A stretch of 64,000 nt of DNA from Syntrophales bacterium (GTDB lineage: Bacteria; Desulfobacterota; Syntrophia; Syntrophales; UBA2210), in assembly GCA_963666365.2 (NCBI GenBank), contig CAXXNF010000002.1:864001-928000 (forward strand). The letters are read 5' to 3'. Below are positions 1,205 through 23,003 of the stretch, piece after piece (positions within the stretch are counted from its first letter, which is position 1; every line of letters starts with the position of its first letter). The position numbers and the translations under genes are program-made. The notes beneath the pieces are model-generated. The model was given only the letters and a program-made list of their open reading frames with translations. It was not told where the DNA came from and ran no database searches.

Positions 1205-1260
1205 CTTTTATTTCAATATTTTTTAATTGCTTCTAAGCGGACGGTGAAAAACGGTTCAAA

Positions 1261-1965: not shown

Positions 1966-2040
1966 GAGTGAAATGAGAAGTGCACCTTAACATTGACAGA
2001 ACCGGGAACTCTCCAATAGAATTATTCGGATAGAGAGTTT

Positions 2041-3300: not shown

Positions 3301-3315
3301 GATATTGAGAAAAAC

Positions 3316-4260: not shown

Positions 4261-4333
4261 GCCGGTTTCGTTCCGGAATTTCAAGATATTCAGTTATCAT
4301 TTTTATGTCGTAGATGGACATGGTTGCAGACAA

Positions 4334-5560: not shown

Positions 5561-5561
5561 C

Positions 5562-6686: not shown

Positions 6687-6767
6687 ACCTTTACTGTTCC
6701 GGGAAGCACCGTATTATGCAAAGAAAAGCCGAATCGATGCTTGCAGGTACTGACACGGGAACAACCT

Positions 6768-7961: not shown

Positions 7962-7991
7962 ACGTGATTTATTCCCGGGATATCGACGTTT

Positions 7992-9119
7992 ATGAAAAAA
8001 TCTTCTGAAATACGTGTGTTACACCTGATTGATTCCTCCGGCGTCGCCGGCGGAGAGCGCTATCTGTTCGACCTGATAAGGCATTCCGATCCTCTATTTG
8101 ATCATCACATTATTTTATCAACTGACGGTCCATTTGTCGGGATGCTGAAGGAGCATAACTGCCGATATACGTTGATCGATATGGAACCCAAATTTTCAGT
8201 CGATTCAATCCGGAGAATCAGAAAATACATTCGTGAGAATAAAATAGAAATCGTGCATACCCATAGCTACCGTTGTAATCTCTACGGCCGGTTGGCCTGT
8301 TTGTTTATGGGGGTTGTGAATCTAGCCACGGCACACGTTTCTCTTTACGATTATCTGGATACACCTCCTTTGGTGAGGCGCATTTATCTGATTGTCGAAA
8401 GAATCACATCTCTCATGGCTTCAAAATATATCTGCATATCCGCGGCAATGAGGGATGATCTTCGAAGAATGGGCATCAGCGATGAAAAACTGGTTGTCAT
8501 TCACAATGGAGTGGATCTTGATGCGTTTTACCCTCGCGCTCTCGACACAGTTCTTTTCGATGAACTGGGTATAGGCGACAATCGCCCCGTCATTGGAACA
8601 GTCGGACGAATGGTGACTGAGAAGGGACAGGTTCATCTGATTGATGCGTTACGACGTCTCGGCGCTCGATGGCCGCGTTTACGATGTCTCTTCATCGGTA
8701 CGGGGCCGCTTCTGGAGGAATTAAAAAAATATGCGAAAACATCGGGGCTCGCCGAAACCTGCATTTTCCCCGGCGTCCGCGCGGATATAGCCAATATTTA
8801 TTCTCTCATGGATATATTCGTCCTTCCCTCGATTCGAGAACCTTTCGGATTGGTGCTTCTGGAGGCAATGGCTTCCCGTGTGCCCATCATCGCCACGGCG
8901 TCCGGGGGTCCGCTGGAATTTATCAGGCCTTATTACAACGGTATACTTGTTTCTCCAGCAAATCCGGGAGAATTATCCTCCCAGATTGAATTTCTCCTGT
9001 CGCAACCCGTGCAATCCTCAGAAATGGCACAGCGCGGATATGAATCAGTCAAAGAAAAATACGGCATAAAGAATACCGTCAGTCAAGTATGTGACGTTTA
9101 TCTTTCATTTTTTAAGTAA
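7992..9119 (+). CDS. Glycosyltransferase family 4
   Basis: 'GVAGGER', 'HNGVD', 'GRMVTEKG', 'EPFGLVLLEAMAS'. Confidence 0.9.
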   Translation: MKKSSEIRVLHLIDSSGVAGGERYLFDLIRHSDPLFDHHIILSTDGPFVGMLKEHNCRYTLIDMEPKFSVDSIRRIRKYIRENKIEIVHTHSYRCNLYGRLACLFMGVVNLATAHVSLYDYLDTPPLVRRIYLIVERITSLMASKYICISAAMRDDLRRMGISDEKLVVIHNGVDLDAFYPRALDTVLFDELGIGDNRPVIGTVGRMVTEKGQVHLIDALRRLGARWPRLRCLFIGTGPLLEELKKYAKTSGLAETCIFPGVRADIANIYSLMDIFVLPSIREPFGLVLLEAMASRVPIIATASGGPLEFIRPYYNGILVSPANPGELSSQIEFLLSQPVQSSEMAQRGYESVKEKYGIKNTVSQVCDVYLSFFK

Positions 9120-9324
9120 AAAAGTTATTCTTGGAATACCTTTTATACTATGCTAATGCTTATGCTACACTTTTTGAGAATTGAGTTTTTTTGAAATTGC
9201 TGTAGTTTTAGTCTTGTTGCACAATTATTTGAAATGTTATGTGAATTTACATAGATCTTTTCGGTGGATAATTCTTATCGAGTCTTCTCTTCAAGTAATC
9301 GTAACAAATAAGCATTGTTCGATC

Positions 9325-9615
9325 ATGAAACAAAAGCGTAGACACAAAAAAATAAAGAGATCGAAACATCCTTTAAAAAACGAATGGAAGCAATTTCTTT
9401 TTGTTTTCGTCATATGCCTTGTAGTTGGTATTGCGTTTGCGTTTCTTACCGGCAAGATGCCGTCATTCCTTGACAGAACCATTCAAAAATACACAGATCG
9501 AATAGCGGCTGAACAAATCAAAGGATTCGAAAAAAAAGTGTTAAAAGAGGTAACAGGCGATAATCTTGATGTTGTCAAAAAGTACAAAGATGCGAAGACT
9601 GCCATTGACAACTAA
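9325..9615 (+). CDS. Small single-pass membrane protein (hypothetical)
   Basis: Basic N-terminus (MKQKRRHKKIKRSK), one hydrophobic helix, charged C-terminus; stop overlaps the convergent gene by 4 nt. Confidence 0.5.
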   Translation: MKQKRRHKKIKRSKHPLKNEWKQFLFVFVICLVVGIAFAFLTGKMPSFLDRTIQKYTDRIAAEQIKGFEKKVLKEVTGDNLDVVKKYKDAKTAIDN

Positions 9616-11030
9616 TTGTTTATCTTATTATTTGTATCACAGGCCTTCATATGATGCACCTTCCGTTCATCTGTCGCTATCGAAGGAATCATTATAACAA
9701 CAGCAGTCAAAAACCAGAACGGTTCCATGATTCTGACGATAATGAATGTATTGGAGCCTACGGCATGAGCAAGCAAGGCTACAAATCCAGCCAAAAATCC
9801 CAGAGCAAGTCCATTAAAGAGGGGTTCCGTCGTGTTCCGGTATACGTGTAAGCCGCTTTTAAAAATGGTAATGAGCAGCCATACGAAAACAGACAAACCG
9901 ATCATTCCAGTCTCCACAATAACTCTTGGAAACTGCGCATCAAGGAATCTATATCCCGTAATACCATAGCCAAAAAGGGGGTGCCTGATAAAATCATTTG
10001 TGAGTACATTCTTCCATGATCTCAGTCTGTCCGATGTTGAGGTATCGATTCGTATTCCGGCAATTTCAATCTGTTCCTTATGATATCGCTGCGTGACAGT
10101 AAAAAGCACCCTCTCTTTTACCGCCTTAGGCAAAGAAAATGGAGCGAGTAAAATTACTGCAATCAGTATCGCAACTAATGCCAGTTTTTTCTTTGAAAAT
10201 AGTATAAGTGCGATCAGCATCGGAATGACCGCAATCCACGAGCTTCTTGAAAGGGTAGCCAACAGAGAAATCACAATTAGCACAGCAAGCACTGCAAGGC
10301 TTTTTTTGTAGCCTGTTGATTCCGATGTAGCCAGCAATCCCAAAACGATAGACAACATGAATACGAGATATCCACCCAGGGTGTTCGGCTCGCCCGTTCC
10401 CCCTTCAAACGGCGCGGTGACCCTCCCGCCCGCGGGGATTTGCGTAATCGCAACGAGACACACGATGCCGCATACGATCAGCATAACAGCGACGAATCGT
10501 TCGATCTGCTTTCGCTCTTTCAGGTGGTTCACCACCATAAAGTAGACGATGTAATATTCAAAATATTTAAGAACAAAGAAAAAACCCGTGGCAATTTTGA
10601 CCCGCCCCATCATGAAGCCAAGCATAGTTGAAATGAGGCAGATAGAGATATACGCAGCGATCGGGACATTCAGGGGCGTTTTCAGAAACAGGCCCAGCTC
10701 TTTGTTGATGGCGGTTTTGAAAAACCAGCCGAAGCCGATGACAACCAAAAGTACGTCGTCAAAACGTATGGTAATTCCGCGGCTTGCTGTCGCACTGCCT
10801 CCCGCCAGGCTGCCGATCATGAATTCCGGGCTGAGAAGCATCGAAACGATGAGAATGTAGAGTGCAACTTCCACGTTAAGGAAGCTGACCACAGCGACCC
10901 CTATTACGGCAGTAAGTAGAAGCGAGGCCGTAATCGATGCCTTTGCGATGATGAATCCGCAAAAGGCGGCTAACAGTATAATTGAGAGTATGGGAACGGC
11001 TGTCCTGATGGTGCTGGTATTTCCCCTCAT
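9612..11030 (-). CDS. O-antigen ligase / Wzy polymerase family protein
   Basis: Multi-TM; 'EPNTLGGYL', 'TLSRSSW', 'HPLFGYG' Wzy_C-like motifs; follows wzc with 4-nt overlap. Confidence 0.8.
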   Translation of the reverse strand: MRGNTSTIRTAVPILSIILLAAFCGFIIAKASITASLLLTAVIGVAVVSFLNVEVALYILIVSMLLSPEFMIGSLAGGSATASRGITIRFDDVLLVVIGFGWFFKTAINKELGLFLKTPLNVPIAAYISICLISTMLGFMMGRVKIATGFFFVLKYFEYYIVYFMVVNHLKERKQIERFVAVMLIVCGIVCLVAITQIPAGGRVTAPFEGGTGEPNTLGGYLVFMLSIVLGLLATSESTGYKKSLAVLAVLIVISLLATLSRSSWIAVIPMLIALILFSKKKLALVAILIAVILLAPFSLPKAVKERVLFTVTQRYHKEQIEIAGIRIDTSTSDRLRSWKNVLTNDFIRHPLFGYGITGYRFLDAQFPRVIVETGMIGLSVFVWLLITIFKSGLHVYRNTTEPLFNGLALGFLAGFVALLAHAVGSNTFIIVRIMEPFWFLTAVVIMIPSIATDERKVHHMKACDTNNKINN

Positions 11031-13813
11031 GGCACGTTATTTTTGTCGATAAAGGCACTTTCAGTAATTTGTAACACATGGCTTCCGGGATATTGCCGGT
11101 CCAATTTACCGTCGTGCAAGAAAGACAACGCCTTGTCCTTGTCACCATATGTGCCGATAAATACGGCATGCCAAAGGCCGCTGCTTTTACTGTTATAGAC
11201 ACTTACCCAGGCGTCAATACCCGTGGTCTTCAATGATCTGGCCAGGCGTTTCGCATTACCGGCCTCCCGAAACGAGCCGATACGGATGGTGTAGTATCCG
11301 TATTTTTTATGATCTTCACGCGTTGATTCGGTATTGCGCTCCGTCTCTATATTACTTTTTTGTTCTCCCCCTCTGTGTTCTTCCGCAATGACCGGATCTG
11401 GATCACCTTTCTTCACAGCAGCTGCAGGAAGGTCTATTTTTTTTCTCACGATCGGCTTCGCGTCAACGTCAGAAGATGCAGTCGAATTGCCGATGGCGCT
11501 GTCTTTCCACAGCGGAATCACCATTTCCGGAAGGTGTATCAGATCAAATCTGTACAGCGCGTGAGCGCCGAACAACAGCAGGATGAGGAAAAGAATCCAC
11601 ACTTTTACTGCAGGCAAGGCTATTTTTGAAATTTTTCGTTTGGGTGTGTTTTCGTCCTCGCCATAATATTTATAGTATTTGTAATAATCATAATCGGTGA
11701 AGTCAGGGCTTATTTCTGGATTGAGGCCATTAAGCACAACGCCGACGATGTGTGCCGTTGCCCTGTTGAGTTGCGCAACGGCCTGTTTGAGGGTGCCCCT
11801 TCCTACTTTTCCCACTCGATATACCATAGCGATGGCGTCTGAAATCGATCCCAGGATTGCGGCATCCGCGGCGGAAAGAACGGGCGGGGAATCAAGAATG
11901 ATAACGTCGTACTCTTTCTGTGCTTCATCAAGAATCGCCCGGAAGGTCCCTGTGCTCATAAGTTCGGCAGGATTGGGGGGCATGGTGCCGCATGTGATTA
12001 TATTTAAATGATCCAATCCCGGTGTTGTCATAATTTCATCAACAGTCATTTTTCCAACCATGAGATCCGAAACGGTGTTGACCGTATCTTTCCAAAAGTA
12101 ATTCCCCAGGATGACATCGGATAATCCAGGCACTTGATTTATCCCGAACATTTTGGCGATCATCGGTTTTCTCATATCCGCGTCGATAAGGAGCACGTTT
12201 TTCCCTGTTTGTGCGAGTGCAACAGCAAGATTGGCCACAATGAATGTCTTGCCCTCTTGCGGCGAAGAGCTTGTAAGGGTTAGTGTCCTGATATTTTTAC
12301 CGAGCCCGGAGAAACTGAGATTTGTGCGGAGTGTTCTGTAATTTTCCGCAAGCAGCGATTTCGGCGCGTAATGGGAAATAAGCCGCGAATATCTTTGAGC
12401 GGTTTCAGTGTCAATTTCCTCTGAACCGTCTCTTGCTATGGATGCCTTAATTTCGTTGACATCCACGTGCGGGATAAGTCCGATCACCTGGGTGCCGGTA
12501 TATTCTTCTATTTCGGCGATATCGCCAATGGAGGTATCGAAGGTTTCAATCACGAAGGCAAGCAGGGTACCCACGATAAGTCCAATAAGAATGCCGGCAA
12601 ACCCTATTGCCGCCGTTTTAGGAGGATTTATCGGGCGCCCCGGTGCAAGGGCAGGTTTCACAATTTGTATTTCCTCTATCTTCTCGGCTTCTTTAATGAG
12701 AATTTCCTGGTACTTGGTCTCAAGAAGCATGTATAATTCTTTATTTATCCGCACATCCTCTTCCAGTCGACCCAGCGCAAGGCTTCTTTCAGGAAGTGTC
12801 TTTATTTTCGAATCTATTTCATCGATCCTCTTTTGCAGCGCTGCGATATGGGCCTCGAGGATTTTATGCTGATGCTGCAGTTCCGACTCCATGCGGGCGG
12901 TAATTTCTTGTATTGCCTTGTTTATTTCTATTACCCGGGGATACTCCTCGGTATAGGTAATAAGAAGCGTATCTCGCTCCATCATTAATTTTATCAGCTG
13001 ATCGTTAAGCCCTTTATAGAGAGGTGATGCATCGGGGATAAAGTAGCTCGTCTTGGCCGCAAGAGCGGTTTTTCCCGATTTATTGAGTATTGTGGCGGTG
13101 TTTTCTATTGTCTGTAATGCCTCTGTTGTCTTTTTATAGGTATCCTGCAACGACGCATATTGATTCAGAAACTGCGAAGTCTGGGAAGCAACCGCCAAAA
13201 GCTGGTGTTCCTCCCTGAATTTTCTCACGGTATCTTCCGCAATTCTCAGCTTTTCTTTCACTACCTGCAGTTGACCTTCAATAAAGGCCTTTGCATCGGA
13301 AGTCCGTTTGTTCAAGTCAATAAAATGATGTTCTTTATGGACACGTGCGATTGTATTGGCAAGATCGCGCGCAAAGGCGGGATCAGCCGACGTCACCGAG
13401 ATGTTCAGAATGTTGCTGTATCCCTCCTGTTCGGTTTCGATACTGTCACGTATATTGAGTACTATCTTTTGATATTTCAAATTCCTATGTATCTCTTCCG
13501 ATGAAACGTCTGCAGGAATGAGTCCCAGCTCTTTTGCCGCCAATTCAACGATATGATAGCTTTTAATGATTGTTGCCTGGGTTCCCATGTAATCCGTTGG
13601 AGACCATGAAACCGCCTGAACATAAAGGCCTGTAACGGAGCTGGTTTTTTCGATCTTGATGCTTGCAGTGGCCTGGTAGAGCGGCACAGGCTGCCACAGC
13701 ATTGAAAAGAGGACGCTGAAGAAGGCGGTGCATACCACGGCGGCGATAATAATGTATTTCCTCTTCCTGACAACCCTCCAGTAATCACGAAGATTCAGAT
13801 CGTATTGCGCCAT
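11027..13813 (-). CDS. wzc: Polysaccharide co-polymerase / BY-kinase (Wzc family) with extra C-terminal TM and SPOR domain
   Basis: Wzz-like N-terminus 'LRDYWRVVRKRK', coiled coil, Walker A 'SSSPQEGKT', 'LLIDADMRKP', 'IILDSPP', Tyr cluster 'DYDYYKYYKYY', SPOR-like 'YTIRIGSF..WHAVFIG'. Confidence 0.88.
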   Translation of the reverse strand: MAQYDLNLRDYWRVVRKRKYIIIAAVVCTAFFSVLFSMLWQPVPLYQATASIKIEKTSSVTGLYVQAVSWSPTDYMGTQATIIKSYHIVELAAKELGLIPADVSSEEIHRNLKYQKIVLNIRDSIETEQEGYSNILNISVTSADPAFARDLANTIARVHKEHHFIDLNKRTSDAKAFIEGQLQVVKEKLRIAEDTVRKFREEHQLLAVASQTSQFLNQYASLQDTYKKTTEALQTIENTATILNKSGKTALAAKTSYFIPDASPLYKGLNDQLIKLMMERDTLLITYTEEYPRVIEINKAIQEITARMESELQHQHKILEAHIAALQKRIDEIDSKIKTLPERSLALGRLEEDVRINKELYMLLETKYQEILIKEAEKIEEIQIVKPALAPGRPINPPKTAAIGFAGILIGLIVGTLLAFVIETFDTSIGDIAEIEEYTGTQVIGLIPHVDVNEIKASIARDGSEEIDTETAQRYSRLISHYAPKSLLAENYRTLRTNLSFSGLGKNIRTLTLTSSSPQEGKTFIVANLAVALAQTGKNVLLIDADMRKPMIAKMFGINQVPGLSDVILGNYFWKDTVNTVSDLMVGKMTVDEIMTTPGLDHLNIITCGTMPPNPAELMSTGTFRAILDEAQKEYDVIILDSPPVLSAADAAILGSISDAIAMVYRVGKVGRGTLKQAVAQLNRATAHIVGVVLNGLNPEISPDFTDYDYYKYYKYYGEDENTPKRKISKIALPAVKVWILFLILLLFGAHALYRFDLIHLPEMVIPLWKDSAIGNSTASSDVDAKPIVRKKIDLPAAAVKKGDPDPVIAEEHRGGEQKSNIETERNTESTREDHKKYGYYTIRIGSFREAGNAKRLARSLKTTGIDAWVSVYNSKSSGLWHAVFIGTYGDKDKALSFLHDGKLDRQYPGSHVLQITESAFIDKNNVP

Positions 13814-13834
13814 TCAACGGAATCCTTTTCCCTG

Positions 13835-15022
13835 TCAATCCACCCTTTTAAAGCGAAGATGATCGCTGTTGAAGTAAGAATCTCTATAACTGCCCGGATA
13901 CAGAAAGTAATCAAGAAGCGGCACCGTATTGGTGATGAACTCATTGATGTCGCCTATGACGGTCCTGGGCACGTACACCACATCGCCATTCAGAAGCGCA
14001 ATGTTTTGTGAAATATCGCCCTGTTTGAGCACCTCGTCAAGGTTTGCGGAAATAACCAGGGGTTTCCTGTCATTTGCCACATATCCCCGAATGACCTTTA
14101 TGTCGGTATCTACGGCTATCCTGGTTGTACCGCCCGCCAACGACACTGCGGCAAGAAGATCATGGGCGTCCTTGAGCCGGTAGATTCCCTGCGATGCAAC
14201 TTCGCCGAACACGTAGACGCGCTCTCCGTAGACCGGCAATTCGGGAACGGTGACGATGTCTCCGCTATCGACAACAATATTTTGACTTGTGTCCCCTTTC
14301 ACCATCACGTCGAGCAGGTTCACGGTGTATTTCCTGCCTTTTCTTACGACCTCCACATGACGTAAATCAGCGTTCGCGTATTCCTGGCCCGATATAGCGC
14401 CACCGGCCATTGTAATCAAATCTATTAAGGTGGTCTTACCTTTCAAATAATACGTGCCCGGTCCCGACGCCCTGTAATCCGCGCTGTTTATCTGGCCCAG
14501 AAGAAGCGCACTTTTGCTTTTATAATCTTTTATCATCACTTCGATTCTAGGTGTTTTTATGTATTTTTTTAACGCATTCGTCAGGAGATCATCGACCTCT
14601 CCTGCGGTACGACCGTCAACCATGACATCATCGATAAAAGAGTAGGAGATTTTGCCATCCGGCCGCACCACCGTTTCGTATTCCTGAACCTGGTTCCCTT
14701 CCATGCTTCGAATGAGAAGTACATCGTCGGCGCCGATTTTATATTCCGGAATTCCTCTCTTTTCGGTAAATACACTGTTTTCAGTAGCCGAACTCATCTC
14801 GGCAATCTGTTGTTTTTCGACTGCCCTCTTCTCATTGGATTGCCTGTCCTGATTTTGTACATTACTGACATATTCCCGTGCAGGTATGCCCCGTGCTTCA
14901 AAACTGCAGGCGTATACCGATAAGATGAATATTCCCATGCACATACCAATCATGACACTGCGCACGCGCAGGTATAATTTGACTTTATTTTCTGTGATCA
15001 TTCGGCTCTGTTTCATTTCCAT
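13835..15022 (-). CDS. wza: Polysaccharide export outer-membrane lipoprotein (Wza family)
   Basis: Lipobox-like 'LSVYAC', poly_export 'EYKIGADDVL..VRPDGKIS', SLBB repeats 'VYVFGEV..PG/QG.Y'; true start may lie slightly downstream. Confidence 0.85.
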   Translation of the reverse strand: MEMKQSRMITENKVKLYLRVRSVMIGMCMGIFILSVYACSFEARGIPAREYVSNVQNQDRQSNEKRAVEKQQIAEMSSATENSVFTEKRGIPEYKIGADDVLLIRSMEGNQVQEYETVVRPDGKISYSFIDDVMVDGRTAGEVDDLLTNALKKYIKTPRIEVMIKDYKSKSALLLGQINSADYRASGPGTYYLKGKTTLIDLITMAGGAISGQEYANADLRHVEVVRKGRKYTVNLLDVMVKGDTSQNIVVDSGDIVTVPELPVYGERVYVFGEVASQGIYRLKDAHDLLAAVSLAGGTTRIAVDTDIKVIRGYVANDRKPLVISANLDEVLKQGDISQNIALLNGDVVYVPRTVIGDINEFITNTVPLLDYFLYPGSYRDSYFNSDHLRFKRVD

Positions 15023-15037
15023 GCAACTGATTCATTT

Positions 15038-15120
15038 TCTCCCACAGAGACGACGAGATGCAGAGAAAAACATTTTTTCATTTTTTGCTGTCCTCAGCGC
15101 CGCTCCGTCTCTGGGCGAAA
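15038..15120. repeat. Imperfect inverted repeat (REP-like) just upstream of wza
   Basis: Arms CAGAGACG ... CGTCTCTG pair perfectly, with weaker flanking complementarity around an A/T-rich centre. Confidence 0.4.
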
Positions 15121-15624
15121 GTATGTTCTTTTTTCTGTACTCTGCCCAAGAAATTGTGAGTTATTACACGCTTTTTAATCTTGCTCGCAATTTCAAGCTC
15201 TTACAGCATTTTTTCCATTCTGTCAATGCAAGGCTATTCAAATATTGAGTGATTATAACCCATTGTAACTGCATCAACAAGGGATATAATCCTTCCCTCA
15301 ATTACATTAGGCATATTATAAAAGCAGCACATCCTGGCAAATACCATATTCCGTCCAGAAGAAATACAAATTATTCTTGTCAATCCTTGTGTAAATGTGT
15401 AGTATCGCGACCTAACTTTGCATTCGATATTGTACGCAGCGGTTTAGTTGCTCTGTGGTCGTTCTTTGCTATGAGACCTGAAATCCGCTCACACACAGAC
15501 CTGTAATGACCCGCTCGCCCACTGCGGTCAAAAAAATAATTTGCATTGTAATCCTTTCGGAGTGAAACTATTGTGCAGCGGTTGCCCTAAAAAAGGATAT
15601 GCATGTTGAGGAATTTCGGATTCC

Positions 15625-16512
15625 ATGCTCAAATTATATTCTGAGATACTACAATATCTTGCCGAATTCAGATCTTACGCACTCGATGATAAAGTGCTTG
15701 ATATTAGGCCCGCGATAGAATTTGTCACATTCTTGACAGGAAACCATGAGCACATCGAGCAGTATTATATATCGACACTACAATCTAATCCCAATGAAGA
15801 CTTTTTTCTCTCTCATCAGGCCAATGCGCTTGCCTATGCTCTCAAGATAGGTCGAGGCTTGAAATACGCTCCTGAAAAACTCCATGAACTCGGTTTGGCA
15901 GCACTGCATTATGATGTAGGGCTCCTTAAAATACCTGATTCAATAAAATATAAGGAAGGTGAACTAAGCGATCTGGAATTAAAAACGATACAGACACATG
16001 CCGAAATAGGCAGCATTATCTTGTCCGCCTATCAAGAACAGTATCCCTTTCTCTCACGGGCTGCGCTCGAGCATCATGAACGGGAAATGGGTCAAGGCTA
16101 TCCTTCAGGATTAAAGGGGAATGAAATCAGTGAATATTCCAAAATAATCGGAGTGGTGGATATATACGAGGCCATGATTCATAAAAGACCCTATAGAAAA
16201 GCCTACCTTCAGCATGATTCAATCAAACGGATCCTTAATTCAAAGGGACAACTCTTTCCCCCGTACATAATAAAGGCGCACCTCGAAGAGACAGGACTGT
16301 ACCCGCTTGGAAGTTATGTAAAACTGAACAATGGAGTAATCGGCCGGGTTTGCGCCGTCAACAAGTCGCACCCATTGAAGCCGGTTGTTATATTGTTGTT
16401 TGACAGCAATGGCCGCAAAATGGCAGGGGATAGTAAAATCAATCTTGGAGAACATCCTATCCTCTATATCACAGAAGCGATTGACATGGAAAATCTGCCC
16501 TATGATCGGTAA
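15625..16512 (+). CDS. HD-GYP domain protein (HD motif degenerate)
   Basis: 'ALHYDVG' at the HD position, 'HHEREMGQGYP', 'DIYEAM..RPYRKA', C-terminal 'YPLGSYVKLNNG'. Confidence 0.85.
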   Translation: MLKLYSEILQYLAEFRSYALDDKVLDIRPAIEFVTFLTGNHEHIEQYYISTLQSNPNEDFFLSHQANALAYALKIGRGLKYAPEKLHELGLAALHYDVGLLKIPDSIKYKEGELSDLELKTIQTHAEIGSIILSAYQEQYPFLSRAALEHHEREMGQGYPSGLKGNEISEYSKIIGVVDIYEAMIHKRPYRKAYLQHDSIKRILNSKGQLFPPYIIKAHLEETGLYPLGSYVKLNNGVIGRVCAVNKSHPLKPVVILLFDSNGRKMAGDSKINLGEHPILYITEAIDMENLPYDR

Positions 16513-16546
16513 AAAATGCAGGGCGGGGATAATGAATATATTGATG

Positions 16547-16575
16547 TTGACATATGGGTGTTGTGGGGCTAGTTT
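16547..16575 (+). promoter_or_regulatory. sigma70-like promoter of the RiPP-like operon
   Basis: TTGACA-N17-TAGTTT, about 58 nt upstream of the PqqD ATG. Confidence 0.55.
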
Positions 16576-16632
16576 AGTTTTAAATTCTTTTTACCTGTGG
16601 TGTATGATCACCGGAGAAGAACTGGAATTTCT

Positions 16633-16890
16633 ATGAAAGATGATCCCATCATGGCAGAAGTCGACGGTGAAGGCATGATTATCGATGTCGACCGCGGGAC
16701 CTGTTATTTCCTGAATGAAACCGCGCTGCTTATTTACAAGATGGTAAAAGACGGCAAAGGCAGCCGCGAGATCAGGGATGTGCTGACACGGGACTATGAT
16801 GTCGACGAAGGAGACGCTGAGAGCGACATAACTGCTTTTTTGAAGCAGTTACAAAGCAAGGCTGCAGCATGGGAAAAAAGAGATACGTAA
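16633..16890 (+). CDS. PqqD family / RiPP recognition element (RRE) chaperone
   Basis: 85 aa; 'EVDGEGMIID....YFLNETALLIY....G....I...L...YDV....AESDI..FL..L' is the typical stand-alone RRE pattern. Confidence 0.9.
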   Translation: MKDDPIMAEVDGEGMIIDVDRGTCYFLNETALLIYKMVKDGKGSREIRDVLTRDYDVDEGDAESDITAFLKQLQSKAAAWEKRDT

Positions 16891-17129
16891 AACCGGAAAT
16901 CAGGGAGGAATCCCAGATTCTTACCGTAAGGGCATGGGTCACCGCAACGGCCCAGGTGTTGACGCAGCCGACGACTGAAACGAGCGTTTCCCTGCAGAAT
17001 GTCGCAGAATCGGTATCATCGACCAGTCAGGCATTACAGGAGAGGGTGACGAAAACCAGTGTTGCACAGCAGACCGTCATCACGAGAACCGGTGTCGCCC
17101 TGCAGAGAGTCCTTTCCCGGCAAAGATGA
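16869..17129 (+). CDS. Putative RiPP precursor peptide (86 aa)
   Basis: Leader 'KKRYVKPEI' matches the RRE-binding Y/WxxPxL/I motif; lies between the RRE and the radical SAM genes; repetitive Thr/Ser/Val/Gln core. Confidence 0.8.
   Translation: MGKKRYVKPEIREESQILTVRAWVTATAQVLTQPTTETSVSLQNVAESVSSTSQALQERVTKTSVAQQTVITRTGVALQRVLSRQR
16941..17114 (+). repeat. Five degenerate 33-bp (11-aa) repeats inside the precursor
   Basis: TATAQVLTQPT / TETSVSLQNVA / (ESV) / SSTSQALQERV / TKTSVAQQTVI / TRTGVALQRVL; DNA e.g. acgaaaaccagtgttgcacagcag vs acgagaaccggtgtcgccctgcag. Confidence 0.7.
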
Positions 17130-17170
17130 TACCCAGGCAATGACACCCGCCTATTGAGCCATAGCTGTCA

Positions 17171-18133
17171 ATGTTACAAACCATAGCCATAGACATAACA
17201 AACTACTGCAATTTCGATTGCATCCACTGCATCAGGGATAAAATTTCACCACGGGCCCATATGGATGCGACATTGCTGAGAGATATTCTTGAACAGATTA
17301 CCTCCGTCGGCATCGGGGAAGCGTGCCTTACCGGCGGAGAACCTGCTCTTCATCCAGAACTCGGTCCCATCGTTAAGAGCTTTTGCGACTACGGCGTGCA
17401 TTTCAGCCTGGTCAGCAACGGATTTCTCTTTGAGGAGTCGATCCTTCCTCTCTTTGACAGGAACGTTCAAAACTACCTGACGGGCGTCAGTTTCAGTCTC
17501 GACGGCGCGACGGCGGCGACTCATGATATGTTGAGGCGCAAGGGAAGTTTCGAACGAGTCATCAGCTCTATCAAGGCATGCACACTAAAAGGGATTTCCG
17601 TATCCGTCAAGAGTATCGTTCATAGAGAAAATATGCACGAAATCGTCGATGTCGCCGTGTTATGCGCCTCCCTTGGCGTTGAAAGTCTCGGATATGTGCT
17701 TCTCACGCCTACGCCGCGGATCATCCAACAGTGCCTTATGCCGAGCGCCGAAGAGTATGAAGCGGTTACCAGACGCATTACCGGAAGGATTGCCCCTTCC
17801 TTCGCAATGATCATTAATATGGAAGGGTACGCCGATCCTGATTTTCGCGTCCCCTTCTGTAATCCCGCCCAGGGGCTTTCGGTAGACCACGAAGGAAACC
17901 TAATATTTTGCTGCAATCTCTCTCACCCAACCGCAGGTGATAGGCCTGATACGTTCGGAGAAGAATATCTCGGCAACATCAGTGACATTGGGATTGAGGA
18001 AGGAATACTGAGGCACTACAGGAAGTTTGCCTGGTTTATGAGCAAAGTGATGAACTCGGGCCCGGCCGGACTTGAAGAAAGAAACTGCTCGGCCTGTTTT
18101 CGCCTCTTCGGCAAGCAGGATTGGATGAAATGA
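17171..18133 (+). CDS. Radical SAM protein with C-terminal Twitch/SPASM-like Cys motifs (1)
   Basis: CxxxCxxC 'CNFDCIHC', 'LTGGEP', 'FSLDG', C-terminal 'FCN..DHEGNLIFCC..CSAC'. Confidence 0.92.
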   Translation: MLQTIAIDITNYCNFDCIHCIRDKISPRAHMDATLLRDILEQITSVGIGEACLTGGEPALHPELGPIVKSFCDYGVHFSLVSNGFLFEESILPLFDRNVQNYLTGVSFSLDGATAATHDMLRRKGSFERVISSIKACTLKGISVSVKSIVHRENMHEIVDVAVLCASLGVESLGYVLLTPTPRIIQQCLMPSAEEYEAVTRRITGRIAPSFAMIINMEGYADPDFRVPFCNPAQGLSVDHEGNLIFCCNLSHPTAGDRPDTFGEEYLGNISDIGIEEGILRHYRKFAWFMSKVMNSGPAGLEERNCSACFRLFGKQDWMK

Positions 18134-19143
18134 AAGCCCCGACGATCGATATCGTTAATTTCTGCAACTTCTCATGCCGGCACTGCCTTGTAGAAAAATC
18201 GGCGCCACCCCTCTTTATGGACAGGCATCTCTTCTCCCATCTCATGGATCAGATAGGACGTCTCGGTTTCAGATATGCCGGCATCACAGGGTCTGGAGAG
18301 GTGTCGCTGCACCCCCAGATAGAAGATATCCTGTTCAGCCTTGCAGAACACAATATCGGGTTTGAAATGCTTACCAACGGATTCTTGTTTAAGGAGCGCC
18401 TGCTTCCGTTGCTTAAAGATCCGATGATCAGGAAACGAGTCTGTTTGATCGGGTTCAGCCTTGACAGCGCACGGGAGGAGGTGCACGACAACAACAGAAA
18501 GGAAGGCAGTTTCAGGAGAATCATCGAGGCGATCGGATTGTGCCGACTGCTCGGAATACCTTTTTATATCAAGACTGCGGTGACAAACATCAACAAACAC
18601 GAGCTGAGAGACATTCTTCTTTTTACCTCCGGTCTGGGCGCCTTTTCACAGTCATTCCTTTTTCTTCAGCCGACGAGGCGATTGTTGACAGAACAACTCA
18701 GTCCCGACCCCCATGAGTTGTATCGCCTGTTCACGGAACTCAGCTCCTGGCGCCGGATATATCCCAGATTAAAACTGGAGGCTTTCAATACATCGAATGA
18801 TCTCTTCTCTTGCAACGCCTTTTTCAAATGCGGCGTCGATGAAGTGGGAAACTATCTTATCTGCAACAATCTCAGCAATGTGGGAACTTCAGAAGAAACC
18901 TACAAAGGCCCGGAATGTATCGGGAACATAGCAAACGAGTGTCTGGAAGACCTGATAGTGCGGCATCTCAACCTCCTGCCGGAAATTCTCAAGTGGCGGT
19001 TTGACCGTAAGGACATGATTAAGAATGCACCCCTCTCACTGTGCAACTGGTGTTTTTACCAGTTTAACAAACTGGACTGGTTAAAAAATGATTTTCCCGA
19101 CTCACCATGGACACGATGCTTAACCTCAACATTTACGGATTGA
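18130..19143 (+). CDS. Radical SAM protein with C-terminal Twitch/SPASM-like Cys motifs (2), paralog of the upstream gene
   Basis: 'CNFSCRHC', 'TGSGE', 'FSLDS', 'SCN..DEVGNYLIC..CNWC'; ATGA overlap with the upstream stop. Confidence 0.92.
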   Translation: MKAPTIDIVNFCNFSCRHCLVEKSAPPLFMDRHLFSHLMDQIGRLGFRYAGITGSGEVSLHPQIEDILFSLAEHNIGFEMLTNGFLFKERLLPLLKDPMIRKRVCLIGFSLDSAREEVHDNNRKEGSFRRIIEAIGLCRLLGIPFYIKTAVTNINKHELRDILLFTSGLGAFSQSFLFLQPTRRLLTEQLSPDPHELYRLFTELSSWRRIYPRLKLEAFNTSNDLFSCNAFFKCGVDEVGNYLICNNLSNVGTSEETYKGPECIGNIANECLEDLIVRHLNLLPEILKWRFDRKDMIKNAPLSLCNWCFYQFNKLDWLKNDFPDSPWTRCLTSTFTD

Positions 19144-19808
19144 AGGTTCAATTACACTTTGCGTCCTGGAGTGACGAAACCAAGGCAGCCGATCTATTCG
19201 CGCTCTTTTTGAACGACGATCACGACGAGGCGGACGTTTCTTTCGAGTTTGGGAAAAATGTGGCGAGACAGGAAATAGCCCGTCATCTTTTTCCTTTTCT
19301 TGCTGAAAGGGAGATATGGGCAATCCATTCAGGGGGGTTTCATTACCATGGCGGGCATCTGACGGTAGGACCTTCCAACTGCGGGAAATCGACCTTCAGC
19401 TACATGGCCGCAAAAAACGACCTCTTTCTCTTGAGCGATGATATTACCCTGATGAAGGATACCGCATCCGGTGTGGAAGTTCTCCCCTTTTACTCGGCAC
19501 TCTATCTGAAACATAAGGTGATTTTACCGGATTCTAGTATTTTCAAGCCCACCCTGCTCAAATACCTCCTGCTGCCGCGATTCAGCAAAGGCGCGTTTTG
19601 CATCAGAAAAATTGAGCAACGCAGCGACCTGCTGCGCCAATTAGTACCCCAATTCCTCTGGTCATACAACAAAAGAGAGCAGGAAAAACAAAAGAGATTT
19701 TTAGAATTACTATGCAATTATCCGGCATTTGAAGTATATTGGAACGAAACGATGTTTGACGATCATCGGTTATTGAGGGACGTACTTGATGCAATTGTTC
19801 AAAATTGA
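19107..19808 (+). CDS. HPr kinase-related P-loop kinase
   Basis: 'IHSGG', Walker A 'GPSNCGKST', 'LLSDD' motif of the HPrK-like family. Confidence 0.75.
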   Translation: MDTMLNLNIYGLKVQLHFASWSDETKAADLFALFLNDDHDEADVSFEFGKNVARQEIARHLFPFLAEREIWAIHSGGFHYHGGHLTVGPSNCGKSTFSYMAAKNDLFLLSDDITLMKDTASGVEVLPFYSALYLKHKVILPDSSIFKPTLLKYLLLPRFSKGAFCIRKIEQRSDLLRQLVPQFLWSYNKREQEKQKRFLELLCNYPAFEVYWNETMFDDHRLLRDVLDAIVQN

Positions 19809-20196
19809 AGGAAACTCCATGTATCCTCTGCTCAAACACAATGACATGGTCATCGTCGCTCCCCTGTCGGCCGAGCGGCTGAAAACAGGAAACATTGTCG
19901 TATTTAAGAAAGATGCACCCGAATATATTGTTCACCGCCTAGTAAAACGAACAGGAGGCGGCAAGATGCTCTTCCGGGGAGACGGCTATAATCTGCCCTT
20001 GGAATTGATAGGGACAAATGCCGTTGTGGGAAAAGTGACTGGAAGGATCAGGGCGGGGGAATTGATACGTGTCAGCCGCTCCAAGGAATGCGGCTCATGG
20101 GCCATTGCCATGATTAAGGAACGGGTTAAGCGTCTTCTGATGAAGGGCCAACGGGTGGTGCAAGAGGACAGCACATCCGTTTCCGATTATTTGTAA
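19789..20196 (+). CDS. S24/S26 signal-peptidase-like protease, no TM anchor
   Basis: 'GNSMYPLL' catalytic Ser, 'GNIVVF', 'IVHRL' (His-type general base as in SipW/SEC11), 'RGDG'; GAGG SD. Confidence 0.85.
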   Translation: MQLFKIEGNSMYPLLKHNDMVIVAPLSAERLKTGNIVVFKKDAPEYIVHRLVKRTGGGKMLFRGDGYNLPLELIGTNAVVGKVTGRIRAGELIRVSRSKECGSWAIAMIKERVKRLLMKGQRVVQEDSTSVSDYL

Positions 20197-20225
20197 CCTC
20201 GCGCCCGGCGAAATGGAAATGCAAG

Positions 20226-20702
20226 ATGGAAAGACGATCGTTCATCAAGACAATACTTGTGGTTACGGCTCTCCTGCAGGGACTGCCGGCAAGGTTGGTG
20301 TGTTTCGGTGGGAACCGCGCCCTTGCCTCAAACAACCACGACTCGCACGAGACCGATTTTACAGGTTCATATTTTACGGGAACGATTGACCACAGGATCT
20401 TAATACCTGAAGAACTGCGTAGTCCATTAAAAAAAACAGGATTTTATGTTGTCGGCCTGAAAGCCCATGGTGTGCTTCTTGTTTCTGCACAGAGTCCGCT
20501 TATGGAACTCTTCGACGAAATAAAGGATTCCACGCTGTTCCGGGAAGACTTTTTACTGCTCCGAGAGGATAATCTCTTCATAGGCAATGACGGCTATCTG
20601 GTCATTCCTCCGGAAATGCGAAATTTTGCCGGCATCAAAACAGGAAAAGTCTCCATAATCGGACGGCGGAACCTGATCGAAATAATAAATTACGGCGAAT
20701 AG
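20226..20702 (+). CDS. MraZ/AbrB-like protein with twin-arginine-like signal peptide
   Basis: 'MERRSFIK' + hydrophobic stretch + 'ALA-S'; two MraZ-like halves 'FTGSY..TIDHRILIPEELR' and 'DGYLVIPPEMRNFAGI...VSIIGRRNLIEI'. Confidence 0.65.
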   Translation: MERRSFIKTILVVTALLQGLPARLVCFGGNRALASNNHDSHETDFTGSYFTGTIDHRILIPEELRSPLKKTGFYVVGLKAHGVLLVSAQSPLMELFDEIKDSTLFREDFLLLREDNLFIGNDGYLVIPPEMRNFAGIKTGKVSIIGRRNLIEIINYGE

Positions 20703-20823
20703 AAAAGAATTCGAGCATGCAAATGCCGGATCACAACCCGTCAATCCGTTGAAATACCTCCGTTCATCGGCAATAATCGGCGGGCTCTGTTCAACGGACC
20801 CATGATGATGAGACATTGCGTCA

Positions 20824-21996
20824 ATGAAGATGAGACATGAAAAGGAACGGGATGTAGTGCGCACCCTCGCACGACAGTCATTGAGCCAAGACGACGCACT
20901 CAGACTTAAAGAATCCCTGGACGATGCAATTCAATGGCCCTTCATCCTGCGTAGCGCAATTGATCAGGGGATTGCTCCGCTTTTGTTTCATCATTTCAAT
21001 AATCTTGCGCTTATGGAGACACTGCCGGCCTATGTACGGCAAGTATTTTCAAGGCTTTACGGCGAAACGATGCTTCTGAACAGGCACATAACGGCGGTGC
21101 TGTCTGAGTTGGAGAAGGCATGTGAAGGAAGCGAGATTCGGGTAATCGTTTTTAAAGGTGCGGCGCTGCTTTCCACCGTGTACCGAGATATCGCCCTGCG
21201 GCCCATGGAAGACATCGATCTCATGGTCCGACCGAAACAAAAGGATACCGTACAAGCAATCCTTAGTAAACGGGGGTTTGTTCGCGACCCGCTCTATCCT
21301 ATGACCTTCAGACGAGGCGTTATTACTGTGGATGTGCACGATGATTTCCTCTCCACCCACAGGATCCGGAGCCGCCGAAAAATAATGAATGTGCACATGG
21401 ACGATGTCTGGGCGAGATCGATTCCCCTCAATGAAAACCTGCGCCACATTTTCCGTCTTTCTCAGTACGATAACCTTTTAGCCCTTTCATTCCATATTTT
21501 GAAACATCGATTTTCCCGACTGATCTGGTTCGCGGATATCAGGGAATCAGTCAATGCCGGCGATACAATTTTCGGCTGGACCGGATTCCTCGATTACGTC
21601 GATGACGTGGGGGCGCACAAGATCGTGCTTTACGCGTTACTGCTGGCGAAACATCTTGTGACGATGGATGTGCCGGATTATGTGCTGCAGCGCCTTGGAA
21701 AGGATGCTCTCTCGACCCTTGAACACACCATCCTGCGACTTAGATTGGCAGACGCCGATCCGAGGACTGTAATAGATTTGTTATGGATATTTCAAATACC
21801 GGGGGGGGTGAGACGGTTGCAATTTATTTTTGAAAACATATTTCCCAGACAAGAAGTCATGAACCAGATATTCCCTGGCTCATCTCTTCCGGTACACACG
21901 TTTTTGAGGCGGGCAATCATCACCGGATCACGGGTATTCATTGATGGGGCTTCAGCATTCAAATTTGTTGCGAAGGGCGGGCTTCCTCCCCTGTGA
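20824..21996 (+). CDS. Nucleotidyltransferase family protein (NTP_transf_5-like)
   Basis: 'FKGAALLSTVY....LRPMEDIDLMV', 'VDVH', 'RLIWFADI'. Confidence 0.85.
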   Translation: MKMRHEKERDVVRTLARQSLSQDDALRLKESLDDAIQWPFILRSAIDQGIAPLLFHHFNNLALMETLPAYVRQVFSRLYGETMLLNRHITAVLSELEKACEGSEIRVIVFKGAALLSTVYRDIALRPMEDIDLMVRPKQKDTVQAILSKRGFVRDPLYPMTFRRGVITVDVHDDFLSTHRIRSRRKIMNVHMDDVWARSIPLNENLRHIFRLSQYDNLLALSFHILKHRFSRLIWFADIRESVNAGDTIFGWTGFLDYVDDVGAHKIVLYALLLAKHLVTMDVPDYVLQRLGKDALSTLEHTILRLRLADADPRTVIDLLWIFQIPGGVRRLQFIFENIFPRQEVMNQIFPGSSLPVHTFLRRAIITGSRVFIDGASAFKFVAKGGLPPL

Positions 21997-22079
21997 CGAC
22001 CGGGAATATGCATCCTTTCCGCACACTGACGGCACTCATTGTTTTTTAACGCCGCTGCTCTACAAAAGGAGATTTTCAC

Positions 22080-23003
22080 ATGAACGAAACCTGCCGACTT
22101 GTTACGCGAAGCGATTTTGACGGGCTTGTGTGCGCCGTCCTTTTGAATGAACTGCACCTTATCGACGACATTGTCTTTGCCGAACCGGGCGATTTGCAGC
22201 AGGGACTCATACCGCTGACCGATCGAGACATTACCTGCGATCTTCCCTTCATGCCCGAAGTTCACCTCGCCTTCGACCATCACGCAAGCGAACTCACACG
22301 GGTCGGACAATGTATCGACAATCACGTCATAATTGCTCAGGCGCCATCCACCGCCCGCGTCGTCTACGATTACTACGGCGGGGCAAAGGCATTCCCTCAC
22401 ATATCCGAATACTTGATGAAGGCTGTCGATAGAATAGATTCGGCCCGTTTAAGCCGCGAAGAGATTCTTCATCCCGCAGGCTATATATTGTTGGGATTCT
22501 TAAGCGATCCACGCACCGGTCTTGATTTATTTGAAGGTTTCGCGCTCTCCCATACCGCATTTCTCATGAAACTGATCGATACGATCGGTCGCCGGGAAAT
22601 CCATGAAATTCTCGAAATTCCCATGGTCAAGGAACGGGCTTCGCTTTATTACGAGCATGCAAAGCCTTTTAACCATCTGATAAAACGTTGTGCCTCCGTT
22701 CACGGGAATGTAGTTGTTTTCGACCCTCGCGGTGAAACCGGCCTCTATATAGGCAACCGATTTGTCATCTATGCACTGTATCCCGATTGTAACGTCAGCA
22801 TCACCCTCACCCAGCGGCATGACGGATTTACATCTCTCTCAGTGGGAAAATCGATTCTTGACCGCAGCTCGTCGGCGAAGATAGGCGACATACTTCTTGC
22901 CTTTAACGGGGGCGGCCACGACAATGCGGGATCCTGTCGCGTCGAAAACAACCTCGTCGATACGGTGCTTCGGGAACTCATCTCCATTTTCAAGGCGGCC
23001 TGA
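22080..23003 (+). CDS. DHH/DHHA1 phosphoesterase (NrnA / exopolyphosphatase-like)
   Basis: 'SDFDG', 'FDHH', 'GGGH..AG'; AGGAG SD. Confidence 0.85.
   Translation: MNETCRLVTRSDFDGLVCAVLLNELHLIDDIVFAEPGDLQQGLIPLTDRDITCDLPFMPEVHLAFDHHASELTRVGQCIDNHVIIAQAPSTARVVYDYYGGAKAFPHISEYLMKAVDRIDSARLSREEILHPAGYILLGFLSDPRTGLDLFEGFALSHTAFLMKLIDTIGRREIHEILEIPMVKERASLYYEHAKPFNHLIKRCASVHGNVVVFDPRGETGLYIGNRFVIYALYPDCNVSITLTQRHDGFTSLSVGKSILDRSSSAKIGDILLAFNGGGHDNAGSCRVENNLVDTVLRELISIFKAA

Follow-up and report, generated by a model that had tools for sequence, protein, structure and literature searches.

A cysteine-free repeat peptide as the probable precursor of a conserved eight-gene RiPP cassette in Syntrophales and related bacteria

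A 64,000-nucleotide stretch of contig CAXXNF010000002.1 (assembly GCA_963666365.2, positions 864,001 to 928,000, forward strand), from a bacterium of the order Syntrophales, contains a small open reading frame (ORF) at 16869..17129 on its plus strand. The whole stretch is referred to here as the window, and positions are counted from its first letter. The 86-codon ORF is a real gene that is under selection in this frame, and it is likely to encode the precursor, or substrate peptide, of a conserved eight-gene cassette for a ribosomally synthesized, post-translationally modified peptide (RiPP), processed in the steps proposed below. This reading is carried by the selection on the gene, an 11-residue repeat in its product, a leader motif, the composition and synteny of the cassette, and the folds and families of the cassette enzymes.

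The product consists of a leader (MGKKRYVKPEIREESQILTVRA) and a 64-residue core. An initial annotation of this DNA translated the ORF exactly, and its counts for the core are also correct, with 20 Ser plus Thr, 10 Val, 9 Gln, one Trp, and no Cys, Asp, Tyr or Phe. The repeat that it described in the core is well separated from chance. Scored with BLOSUM62, the core has an autocorrelation of 59 at lag 11, compared to −12.4 ± 13.9 in shuffles (z=5.13), and none of 2000 composition-matched shuffles reached this score. A second signal at lag 25 (11+14; z=4.34) is caused by a three-residue insert, ESV, and no other lag between 1 and 33 rises above z=1.4. The initial annotation counted five repeats, of which four (units 2–5) are clear, with 4–6 of 11 residues and 12–24 of 33 bases in common in pairwise comparisons. 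Unit 1, on the other hand, is degenerate, sharing just 2–3 of 11 residues with the other units and escaping a position matrix trained on the family, and the insert interrupts the series.

At the DNA level, the 33-bp periodicity that had also been claimed is present but faint. Base identity at lag 33 is 0.415, compared to 0.270 in codon shuffles (z=3.8; reached by 0 of 1000), and a repeat search of the DNA finds three 25-nt copies with 72% identity and spacings of 75 and 33 nt, but Tandem Repeats Finder reports no repeats in 16700-17300 at a minimum score of 30. Given this faint signal and the 4–6 of 11 residues that are alike between units, the repeat is therefore old and has been kept at the protein level.

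The repeat is shared by most of the precursor family. Lag 11 is the top lag in the range 5–19 in 34 of 38 family members and has z>=3 in 28 of the 38; the exceptions to lag 11 as top lag are P0007, in which lag 14 comes first and lag 11 second, and P0034–P0036. An iterated position matrix detects 140 units in 47 distinct precursors, compared to a mean of 0.6 (maximum 2) in shuffled cores, although training of the matrix on these very sequences makes the comparison partly circular. Most precursors have three (29 sequences) or four (10) detected units, and the others have two (6), one (1) or none (1), while start-to-start spacings are 11 (64 times), 14 (22), 16 (3) and 25 (5) residues. Across the family, then, the repeat is conserved and the number of units varies among precursors, which is the outcome that a check named in the initial annotation looks for.

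The consensus of the 140 units is [T/S]-x-[T/S/V]-[S/N]-[V/Y/Q]-A-[L/V]-Q-x-[V/A/I]-[L/V/I/F]. Position 1 is T in 79% and S in 19% of units, position 3 is T or S in 86%, and position 4 is S in 58% and N in 34%. Position 5 is V (51%), Y (35%) or Q (13%), and it is followed by A (74%), L (60%) and Q (84%) at positions 6 to 8, with V/A/I at position 10 and L/V/I/F at position 11. The most conserved positions are Thr1, Ser/Asn4, Ala6 and Gln8. Two relatives have unusual architectures. P0041, a family member of 188 residues, has the leader, three units and a long Pro/Thr-rich tail, and P0052 (E 6.9e-4, no leader) is a tandem array of about ten 11-residue units, TESSYAL[T/S]ENL, which are near-identical to one another and similar to the family unit.

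A search of a collection of 5.8 billion proteins yielded 37 homologues of the precursor, with lengths of 65–99 residues and identities of 40–74%. Few of these are named, and those that are named are hypothetical proteins of metagenome-assembled genomes (MAGs) of Thermodesulfobacteriota, Desulfatiglandales and Syntrophales. In the alignment of the 38 precursor sequences (A1), residues 1–25 are almost fixed: P9, E13, E14, L18, T19, V20, A22 and T25 are invariant, and M1, K3, K4, Y6, I11, R12, S15, I17, R21, W23 and V24 are at least 90% conserved. In the rest of the peptide, the members vary by the presence or absence of whole units and by inserts of 3–4 residues. A profile search of 1.84 billion cluster representatives returned 18 matches at E<=0.001, and the 15 of these that have the leader all retain, relative to the putative cleavage site, Ala at −1 and Thr at +3.

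For the coding sequence of the window compared with 12 others from related loci (13 in all), the ratio of nonsynonymous to synonymous polymorphism (pN/pS) is 0.076 for codons 1–25 and 0.589 for the remaining codons, with pS of about 0.6 in both parts. Selection therefore acts on this frame, and it is strongly purifying in the leader but not in the core. Added constraint falls on the very start, where the first seven codons run over the end of the preceding gene. A fixed leader in front of a free core is the contrast that is typical of RiPP precursors. The family is rare: a scan of 185,579 genomes, one for each GTDB species, gave 11 loci, and 400 other genomes sampled from the phylum of the window gave no match to the precursor profile. 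The genome of the window itself has one copy. No Pfam or NCBIfam family matches the precursor at E<=0.01, and no usable match was found in the ESM Atlas.

The precursor gene belongs to a cassette that recurs in 11 related loci, which come from MAGs of Syntrophales, Syntrophaceae, Desulfobacteraceae, and unclassified Thermodesulfobacteriota or “Deltaproteobacteria”. Synteny was assessed by tblastn with the window proteins, and since two loci (L001 and L008) end at a contig edge, nine are untruncated. Eight of these nine (L002–L005, L007 and L009–L011) have the same eight genes in the same order: a PqqD-like RiPP recognition element (RRE), the precursor, two radical S-adenosylmethionine enzymes (rSAM1 and rSAM2), an HprK-like protein, a signal peptidase-like protein, a 158-residue protein, and an NTP_transf_5 nucleotidyltransferase. 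The ninth, L006, is without the 158-residue gene only, so the other seven genes are all present, and the NTP_transf_5 gene is found in 9 of 9. The order RRE, precursor, rSAM1 is kept in 11 of 11 loci, with the RRE gene directly upstream of the precursor each time. Some loci have features of their own. L002 contains two tandem precursor genes with different cores (8001-8264 and 8429-8698), and its rSAM2 match (9740-10905) falls into two pieces that lie in different frames, through either a frameshift or, possibly, a fault in the assembly. An extra gene, encoding a 452-residue protein with a methyltransferase domain, lies between the 158-residue and NTP_transf_5 genes in L003 (12221-13579) and L004 (12227-13585).

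The best NCBIfam matches of the RRE are PqqD chaperones of lasso peptides (44.5 and 38.9 bits, below their cut-offs), and the HPr-rel-A, GeoRSP and ScmD PqqD models score lower. Its Met13, at 16633, is invariant in 12 sequences and is where several homologous matches begin, so this is probably the true start. The last 22 nt of the RRE gene overlap the start of the precursor gene in another frame. Related loci retain this arrangement, a sign that translation of the two genes may be coupled. The view of the initial annotation that this is a precursor-type peptide, with a YxxP leader beside an RRE, holds across the family, in which P9 never varies and Y6 is conserved to at least 90% (38 sequences). 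A complex prediction with RRE residues 13–97 and precursor residues 1–36 was graded as “weak support” with a score of 0.40, compared to 0.02 for the best of three controls. The mark applied is one that 116 of 157 solved complexes attain, as do 2 of 215 mismatched pairs, and those that pass it with scores of 0.60 or less comprise 18 of the 157 solved complexes and both mismatches. The three docking runs agree in at least 84% of contacts, and the predicted local distance difference test (pLDDT) value of the partner is at least 57. Because custom alignments were used and solved RRE–leader complexes exist, the pass may reflect likeness rather than binding.

Type I signal peptidases recognize their sites by a −3/−1 rule. 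An end of the leader at A22 would fit such a site (V20-R21-A22 / W23), with V (−3) and A (−1) both invariant in A1, and would mirror the F-E-T / A junction of LppA. A cut after A22 would place the invariant Thr25 at core position +3, which is the position of the only phosphorylation site of LppA. LppA is the precursor encoded by lppA-K-B-S-D-N of Paenibacillus alginolyticus, a cluster for linear polyphosphorylated peptides (LPPs) (Popov et al., Nat Commun 2026, PMC13381572). According to the available text of that paper, the LPP leader has the consensus YxxPxVLxHQxIxFETxxS, LppS cuts after Thr−1 of F-E-T and requires the RRE, and LppK stacks one to four phosphates on Ser+3 only. The LppA variants S3A, S3T and S3Y are phosphate-free, and LppN was silent in the heterologous host (PMC13381572).

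The two radical SAM enzymes are paralogues with about 32–33% identity, and each has a CX3CX2C site. The invariant cysteines of rSAM1 (11 sequences) are C13/C17/C20 together with C230, C247, C248, C306 and C309, and those of rSAM2 (9 sequences) are C15/C19/C22 together with C231, C248, C266, C308 and C311; C52, C137 and C165 in rSAM1 and C141 in rSAM2 are also invariant. Both proteins contain G-x4-C and CX2C elements, and the CX2CX5CX3C run is found in neither. This cysteine pattern suggests that each enzyme has a truncated SPASM domain with one auxiliary cluster. The best relatives of rSAM1 among Protein Data Bank (PDB) sequences are BlsE (5.5e-16), SkfB (3e-11) and PqqE (3.2e-9), and rSAM2 has none at E<=0.001. 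The best NCBIfam models of the pair are ScmF/ScmE, NirJ2, AhbD and a tungsten-cofactor-maturase model, all far below cut-off. Two chemistries were considered and set aside. Thioether formation, as in sactipeptides and ranthipeptides, is ruled out, as there is no Cys in the window core or in any family member. A Thr-Gln ether of the TqqB type is a loose analogy: TqqB links adjacent Thr and Gln residues (PMC9389541), and Thr1 and Gln8 of the unit are seven residues apart.

The 233-residue HprK-like protein of the window alone has no Pfam or NCBIfam match. HprK_rel_A and HprK_rel_B match 9 of 10 members of its family weakly (best E 0.0017 and 0.004), and the family profile aligns its P-loop/DD segment, GPSxCGKST...LLSDD, with HPr(Ser) kinase 3tqf (E=0.083). 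Its AlphaFold2 (AF2) model has a pLDDT of 74.6 and a predicted template modelling score of 0.76, with three of five models below 50, and Foldseek matches it to ATP-dependent PEPCK (E 2.8e-7) and to HprK/P structures 1ko7 (9.4e-6), 1kkl (4e-5) and 3tqf (1e-4). Judging from this model, the protein most likely has the HprK/PEPCK P-loop kinase fold, and it may act as a kinase.

The peptidase-like protein scores 51.3 bits on TIGR02228 (archaeal-type signal peptidase I), compared to a cut-off of 51.85, and its S11, H50 and D66 are invariant in 10 sequences. Only about 10 residues precede the catalytic Ser, so there is no room for an N-terminal membrane anchor. In the family of the 158-residue protein, R3 and R4 are invariant (9 sequences), 5 of 9 members match MraZ (best E 2.3e-4), and 4 of 9 match TAT_signal below threshold (E of at least 0.14); the ESM Atlas gave no usable match for this protein, which may be a periplasmic partner of the peptide exported by the twin-arginine translocation (Tat) route.

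From these parts we infer a sequence of processing steps. The leader (residues 1–22) would dock through Y6-x-x-P9-x-I11, the motif by which lasso and LPP leaders bind an RRE, on the PqqD-like RRE encoded just upstream, and the RRE would then hand the peptide to the tailoring enzymes. The Cys-free core would be the target of the two half-SPASM rSAM enzymes, most plausibly with one modification for each 11-residue unit, and their candidate chemistries are alpha-carbon epimerisation, C-O or C-C cross-linking, and dehydrogenation of the conserved Thr/Ser. The HprK-fold kinase would phosphorylate the peptide, by analogy with LppK at the invariant Thr25 (+3) and possibly with several stacked phosphates, and NTP_transf_5 would then elaborate the phosphate. 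Finally, the soluble Ser/His/Asp signal peptidase-like enzyme would remove the leader after V20-R21-A22.

The surroundings of the cassette differ between loci. In the window, the region upstream (62-15022) is a complete-looking polysaccharide locus with genes for a flippase, a methyltransferase, six glycosyltransferase-type proteins, a Wzy-like protein, a Wza-like exporter, and a 928-residue Wzz/tyrosine-kinase protein that ends in a SPOR domain. In L007, L009 and L011 the cassette is flanked by Wza, Wzc, Wzb, AAA_22 and HD_5 genes, and the HD_5 homologue adjoins the cassette in these 3 of 11 loci. A MacB-HlyD-OEP efflux set flanks the cassette in L002, and unrelated housekeeping genes do so in L003–L005. 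The cassette is therefore self-contained and often, but not always, lies beside polysaccharide export genes, and this frequent position points to a possible function in the matrix or cell envelope. Of the 10 cassette-region and 24 flanking ORFs scanned (62-35421), none matched an ABC-transporter family. Directly after the cassette in the window is a 307-residue ORF (22080-23003, plus strand) with no Pfam or NCBIfam match and with DxD and DHH-like motifs recognized by eye; none of the 11 related loci keeps it next to the cassette. A terminator scan of 15000-17400 found none, and the seven promoter-like sites in the same interval were not judged to be above the shuffle mean of 4.7. A look-up of sequencing runs listed four sources, all of DNA or of unknown kind and none of RNA.

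Table 1. Features of the cassette region and small ORFs of SynChlorMet (SCM) cassettes. Positions refer to the window unless a locus is named.
Feature	Position	Strand	Remarks
HD_5 (HD-GYP-like) phosphohydrolase	15625..16512	+	PF13487, 98 bits; loosely associated neighbour
PqqD-like RRE	16597..16890	+	PF05402, 49 bits (cut-off 23.4)
Precursor gene	16869..17129	+	ATG start, 86 codons, product 86 aa
Leader, residues 1-22	16869..16934	+	MGKKRYVKPEIREESQILTVRA; YxxPxI RRE-binding motif and V-R-A putative signal-peptidase site
Core, residues 23-86, and stop codon	16935..17129	+	64 residues
Core unit 1	16941-16973	+	TATAQVLTQPT; degenerate, preceded by W23-V24
Core unit 2	16974-17006	+	
Insert between units 2 and 3	17007-17015	+	ESV, 3 residues
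Core unit 3	17016-17048	+	
Core unit 4	17049-17081	+	
Core unit 5	17082-17114	+	
Core tail	17115-17126	+	SRQR
rSAM1	17171..18133	+	PF04055, 82.6 bits; truncated SPASM (twitch-like) C-terminal domain
rSAM2	18121..19143	+	PF04055, 70 bits; paralogue of rSAM1, same truncated SPASM
HprK/PEPCK-fold P-loop protein	19107..19808	+	233 aa; putative peptide kinase
Soluble archaeal/ER-type signal peptidase I-like protein (S24/S26)	19786..20196	+	PF00717, 36 bits; putative leader peptidase
158-aa cassette protein	20226..20702	+	No family; twin-arginine N-terminus, weak MraZ/AbrB-like segments
NTP_transf_5 nucleotidyltransferase	20824..21996	+	PF14907, 151 bits
SCM small ORF	L021:12818-12970	+	
SCM small ORF	L025:about 9024-9296	+	
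SCM small ORF	L022:about 9928-10250	+	
SCM small ORFs	L024:about 11190-10740 and about 2680-2100	-	
SCM small ORF	L014:about 1366-1259	-	

Several observations weigh against the proposed scheme. An ungapped alignment to the LPP motif, starting from the Tyr, puts the cut after R21, so that a cut after A22 needs a shift of one residue and rests on the −3/−1 rule. LppK did not phosphorylate Thr at +3, as the S3T variant of LppA was phosphate-free (PMC13381572). The assignment of the kinase draws on weak sequence signals (E 0.002-0.08) and one model of medium confidence. The PDB sequence closest to rSAM1, BlsE, belongs to a decarboxylase of nucleoside sugars and not to a peptide maturase. In addition, the cassette is without the MsbA-like exporter of LPP and SCM clusters, which leaves export of the product unexplained.

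Other explanations assign different roles to the same genes. The initial annotation proposed phosphorylation of many TxT/S sites by the HprK-like protein together with iterative, proteusin-like epimerisation of Val, Ala and Thr. The repeat offers the sites for this, with T or S at unit positions 1, 3 and 4 in 98%, 86% and 62% of the 140 units and hydrophobic residues (V/Y5, A6, L7) in every unit. The epimerase YydG, which has an auxiliary cluster, acts on Val and Ile (PMC9389541), and the extra invariant cysteines (C52, C137 and C165 in rSAM1, C141 in rSAM2) could donate the hydrogen atom. The characterized kinase speaks against the many TxT/S targets: LppK stacks its phosphates on a single Ser at core position 3, and S3A abolishes all of them (PMC13381572), so a +80 Da ladder would not be a sign of phosphorylation at many sites. 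As for the epimerase, the precursor has no NHLP- or Nif11-type leader by Pfam or NCBIfam, the best rSAM models, all far below cut-off, do not point to an epimerase, and the nif11-class maturase model is not among the best 25 rSAM matches listed. Epimerisation by the rSAM pair is possible, but nothing here points to it or separates it from other Cys-independent rSAM chemistry, and the combined proposal is considered unlikely. Still less probable is the explanation that the peptide undergoes LPP-type processing only, while the rSAM pair serves a sugar-nucleotide or cofactor of the neighbouring polysaccharide pathway. The relationship to BlsE, a cytosylglucuronate decarboxylase, is in its favour, as are the polysaccharide locus of the window and the export genes that also flank L007, L009 and L011. 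However, the rSAM pair directly follows the precursor in 11 of 11 loci, including the housekeeping-flanked L003, L004 and L005, and in the sister SCM cassettes two rSAM/SPASM enzymes go together with YxxP peptides that are rich in Cys. We also know of no role for an RRE outside peptide presentation.

The last alternative, that the ORF encodes an unmodified structural or regulatory protein that forms an amphipathic helix with an 11/3 hendecad repeat and merely travels with the cassette, receives hardly any credence here. On an 11/3 helical wheel, Thr1, Ser/Asn4, Gln8, V/Y5 and positions 2 and 9 form a polar arc, and A6, V10, T/S3, L7 and L11 form an apolar arc. AF2 predicts helices at residues 11–32 and 36–85, with a mean pLDDT of 71.4 (73–85 over residues 51–86), and the hydrophobic moment of residues 25–82 at 98.2 degrees is 0.268, reached by 16 of 2000 shuffles. 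The hendecad helix suggested by the initial annotation is thus compatible with the model and the moment, but it is only weakly marked: the moment is modest, that of units 3–5 alone is reached by 218 of 2000 shuffles, and the largest peak lies at 68–71 degrees, which is a further harmonic of the 11-residue period. Lone helices are a frequent AF2 output for short peptides. The near-invariant YxxP leader, the overlap with the RRE gene, and the contrast in selection between leader and core are instead the signature of a RiPP precursor.

The cassette extends LPP machinery (RRE, putative HprK-like kinase, signal peptidase-type peptidase and nucleotidyltransferase) outside Bacillota and links it to the long-orphan SynChlorMet-type cassettes with two rSAM enzymes. 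The precursor would be a clean substrate for probing two half-SPASM rSAM enzymes on a Cys-free peptide, and its fixed leader, followed by units that vary naturally in number and sequence between species, would provide a built-in test of unit counting. The recurrent polysaccharide-export neighbours make a link between the modified peptide and the biofilm or capsule matrix testable, a question that the LPP authors left open in the available text (PMC13381572). On a more speculative note, the half-SPASM pair might install one Cys-independent mark per unit, either a D-residue or a C-O or C-C link through the stripe of Thr1, Ser/Asn4 and Gln8, which together with a phosphate or phosphoglycosyl group on Thr25 would give a periodic, rod-like peptide that is built into, or primes, an extracellular polysaccharide matrix. 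A repeat-templated rSAM modification of this kind would define a new RiPP class. This picture is doubtful as a whole. What the present analysis adds is a quantified repeat with a profile of its units, the difference in selection between leader and core, the finding of half-SPASM domains, and a comparison to true SCM cassettes and the candidate precursors found with them.

The LPP clusters resemble the window cassette in many respects, with likeness judged from descriptions and by eye. As described, besides the precursor their core gene set covers an HprK-like kinase, a discrete RRE, a leader peptidase akin to archaeal-type signal peptidases, an MsbA-like pump and an NTP transferase; these genes often lie in capsular polysaccharide loci and are stated to be restricted to Bacillota (PMC13381572). 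Both systems have a discrete PqqD-type RRE beside the precursor, a YxxPx[V/I] leader motif, an NTP transferase, and a frequent position in or beside polysaccharide loci; to judge by weak profile matches and a Foldseek match, the window cassette may share an HprK-like kinase as well. Both also have an archaeal-type Ser/His/Asp signal peptidase-like protein, with the same Ser-to-His spacing of 39 as S29/H68 of LppS, and, given a cut after A22, residues at −1 and −3 that are small and hydrophobic, respectively, and one with a hydroxyl group at core +3. On the other hand, the window leader keeps just Y-x-x-P-x-[I] and has, by eye, lost the VLxHQxIxFET remainder. Its cassette adds two radical SAM enzymes and a Tat/MraZ-like protein and has no MsbA-like exporter, its core is a Cys-free T/S/V/Q repeat of 11 residues while that of LppA is rich in Gly, Asn and Pro, and its host phylum is not Bacillota. 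The window peptidase has 10 residues before the catalytic Ser compared to 28 in LppS, and so is without the N-terminal helix by which LppS contacts LppB. The terms radical, rSAM, SPASM, Desulf and Syntroph are absent from the available main text of the LPP paper, and in its available supplements Radical_SAM occurs once, as the name of a column in a domain matrix (PMC13381572). The data set available with the paper includes one Thermodesulfobacteriota peptidase, a singleton in the sequence similarity network with no precursor assigned (PMC13381572).

True SCM cassettes were fetched because the window rSAM genes scored best on SynChlorMet models (NCBIfam TIGR04248 ScmD, TIGR04249 ScmC, TIGR04250 ScmE and TIGR04251 ScmF). 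ScmF is above cut-off in 14 of 401 genomes sampled from the phylum of the window, and none of its matches at E<=1e-60 lies in the genome of the window. L021 and L025 run ScmD, ScmE, ScmF, ScmC, then an archaeal-type signal peptidase, with an NTP_transf_5-like gene alongside, which parallels the window order of PqqD-type protein, two rSAM enzymes, P-loop protein, archaeal-type signal peptidase and NTP_transf_5. L024 and L025 carry an MsbA-like ABC exporter, and in L024 the peptidase is fused to ScmC. The SCM loci L021, L024 and L025 are thus the LPP gene set with two rSAM/SPASM enzymes added. The window proteins are nevertheless distinct. Against cut-offs of 400, rSAM1 scores 84.4 on ScmF and 72.5 on ScmE, and rSAM2 scores 58.4 and 49.9; the RRE scores 20.4 on ScmD (cut-off 100). 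The ScmC model (cut-off 125) has no match at E<=10 in 10 members of the 233-residue family, and hhalign aligns the window P-loop protein to ScmC with a probability of 15.7%, over the P-loop only. ScmE and ScmF have the full CX2CX5CX3C SPASM motif, while the window enzymes have CX2C only, and the 158-residue gene, found in 8 of 9 untruncated window-type loci, is present in 0 of 5 SCM loci.

Genuine SCM cassettes also have small ORFs with YxxP leaders in or beside them (YEPPEL, YERPLC, YESPTV, YETPVV and YMEPKL), whose cores are Cys-bearing, rich in Gly, Ser and Thr, and in some cases repetitive. To our knowledge, the SCM family descriptions call the precursor unidentified. By sequence, these small ORFs look like candidate SCM precursors, which differ from the window family in that the latter is Cys-free. 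By analogy, these sister cassettes, with the same gene order and YxxP ORFs, support a role for the rSAM pair in modifying the peptide.

Phosphorylated lasso peptides of the paeninodin type share with the window a YxxP leader, a nucleotidyltransferase module and, putatively in the window, an HprK-like kinase, as far as they are described in the available LPP text (PMC13381572), and the best NCBIfam matches of the window RRE are lasso PqqD chaperones, as noted above. General library scans of the 10 ORFs in 15625-23003 found no macrolactam synthetase or transglutaminase-type B2 peptidase families, and a lasso fold is not possible for the window peptide. Proteusins and epipeptides are similar in their long, Cys-poor cores rich in Val, Thr, Gln and Ala, which could take iterative rSAM modification; they differ in the leader, which in the window is lasso/LPP-like. 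In the literature searched, no publication describing the window cassette and none on SynChlorMet by name was found, and the nearest works are lasso peptide reviews and the LPP paper. The window cassette combines LPP machinery with an SCM-like rSAM pair, belongs to neither group, and represents an undescribed lineage.

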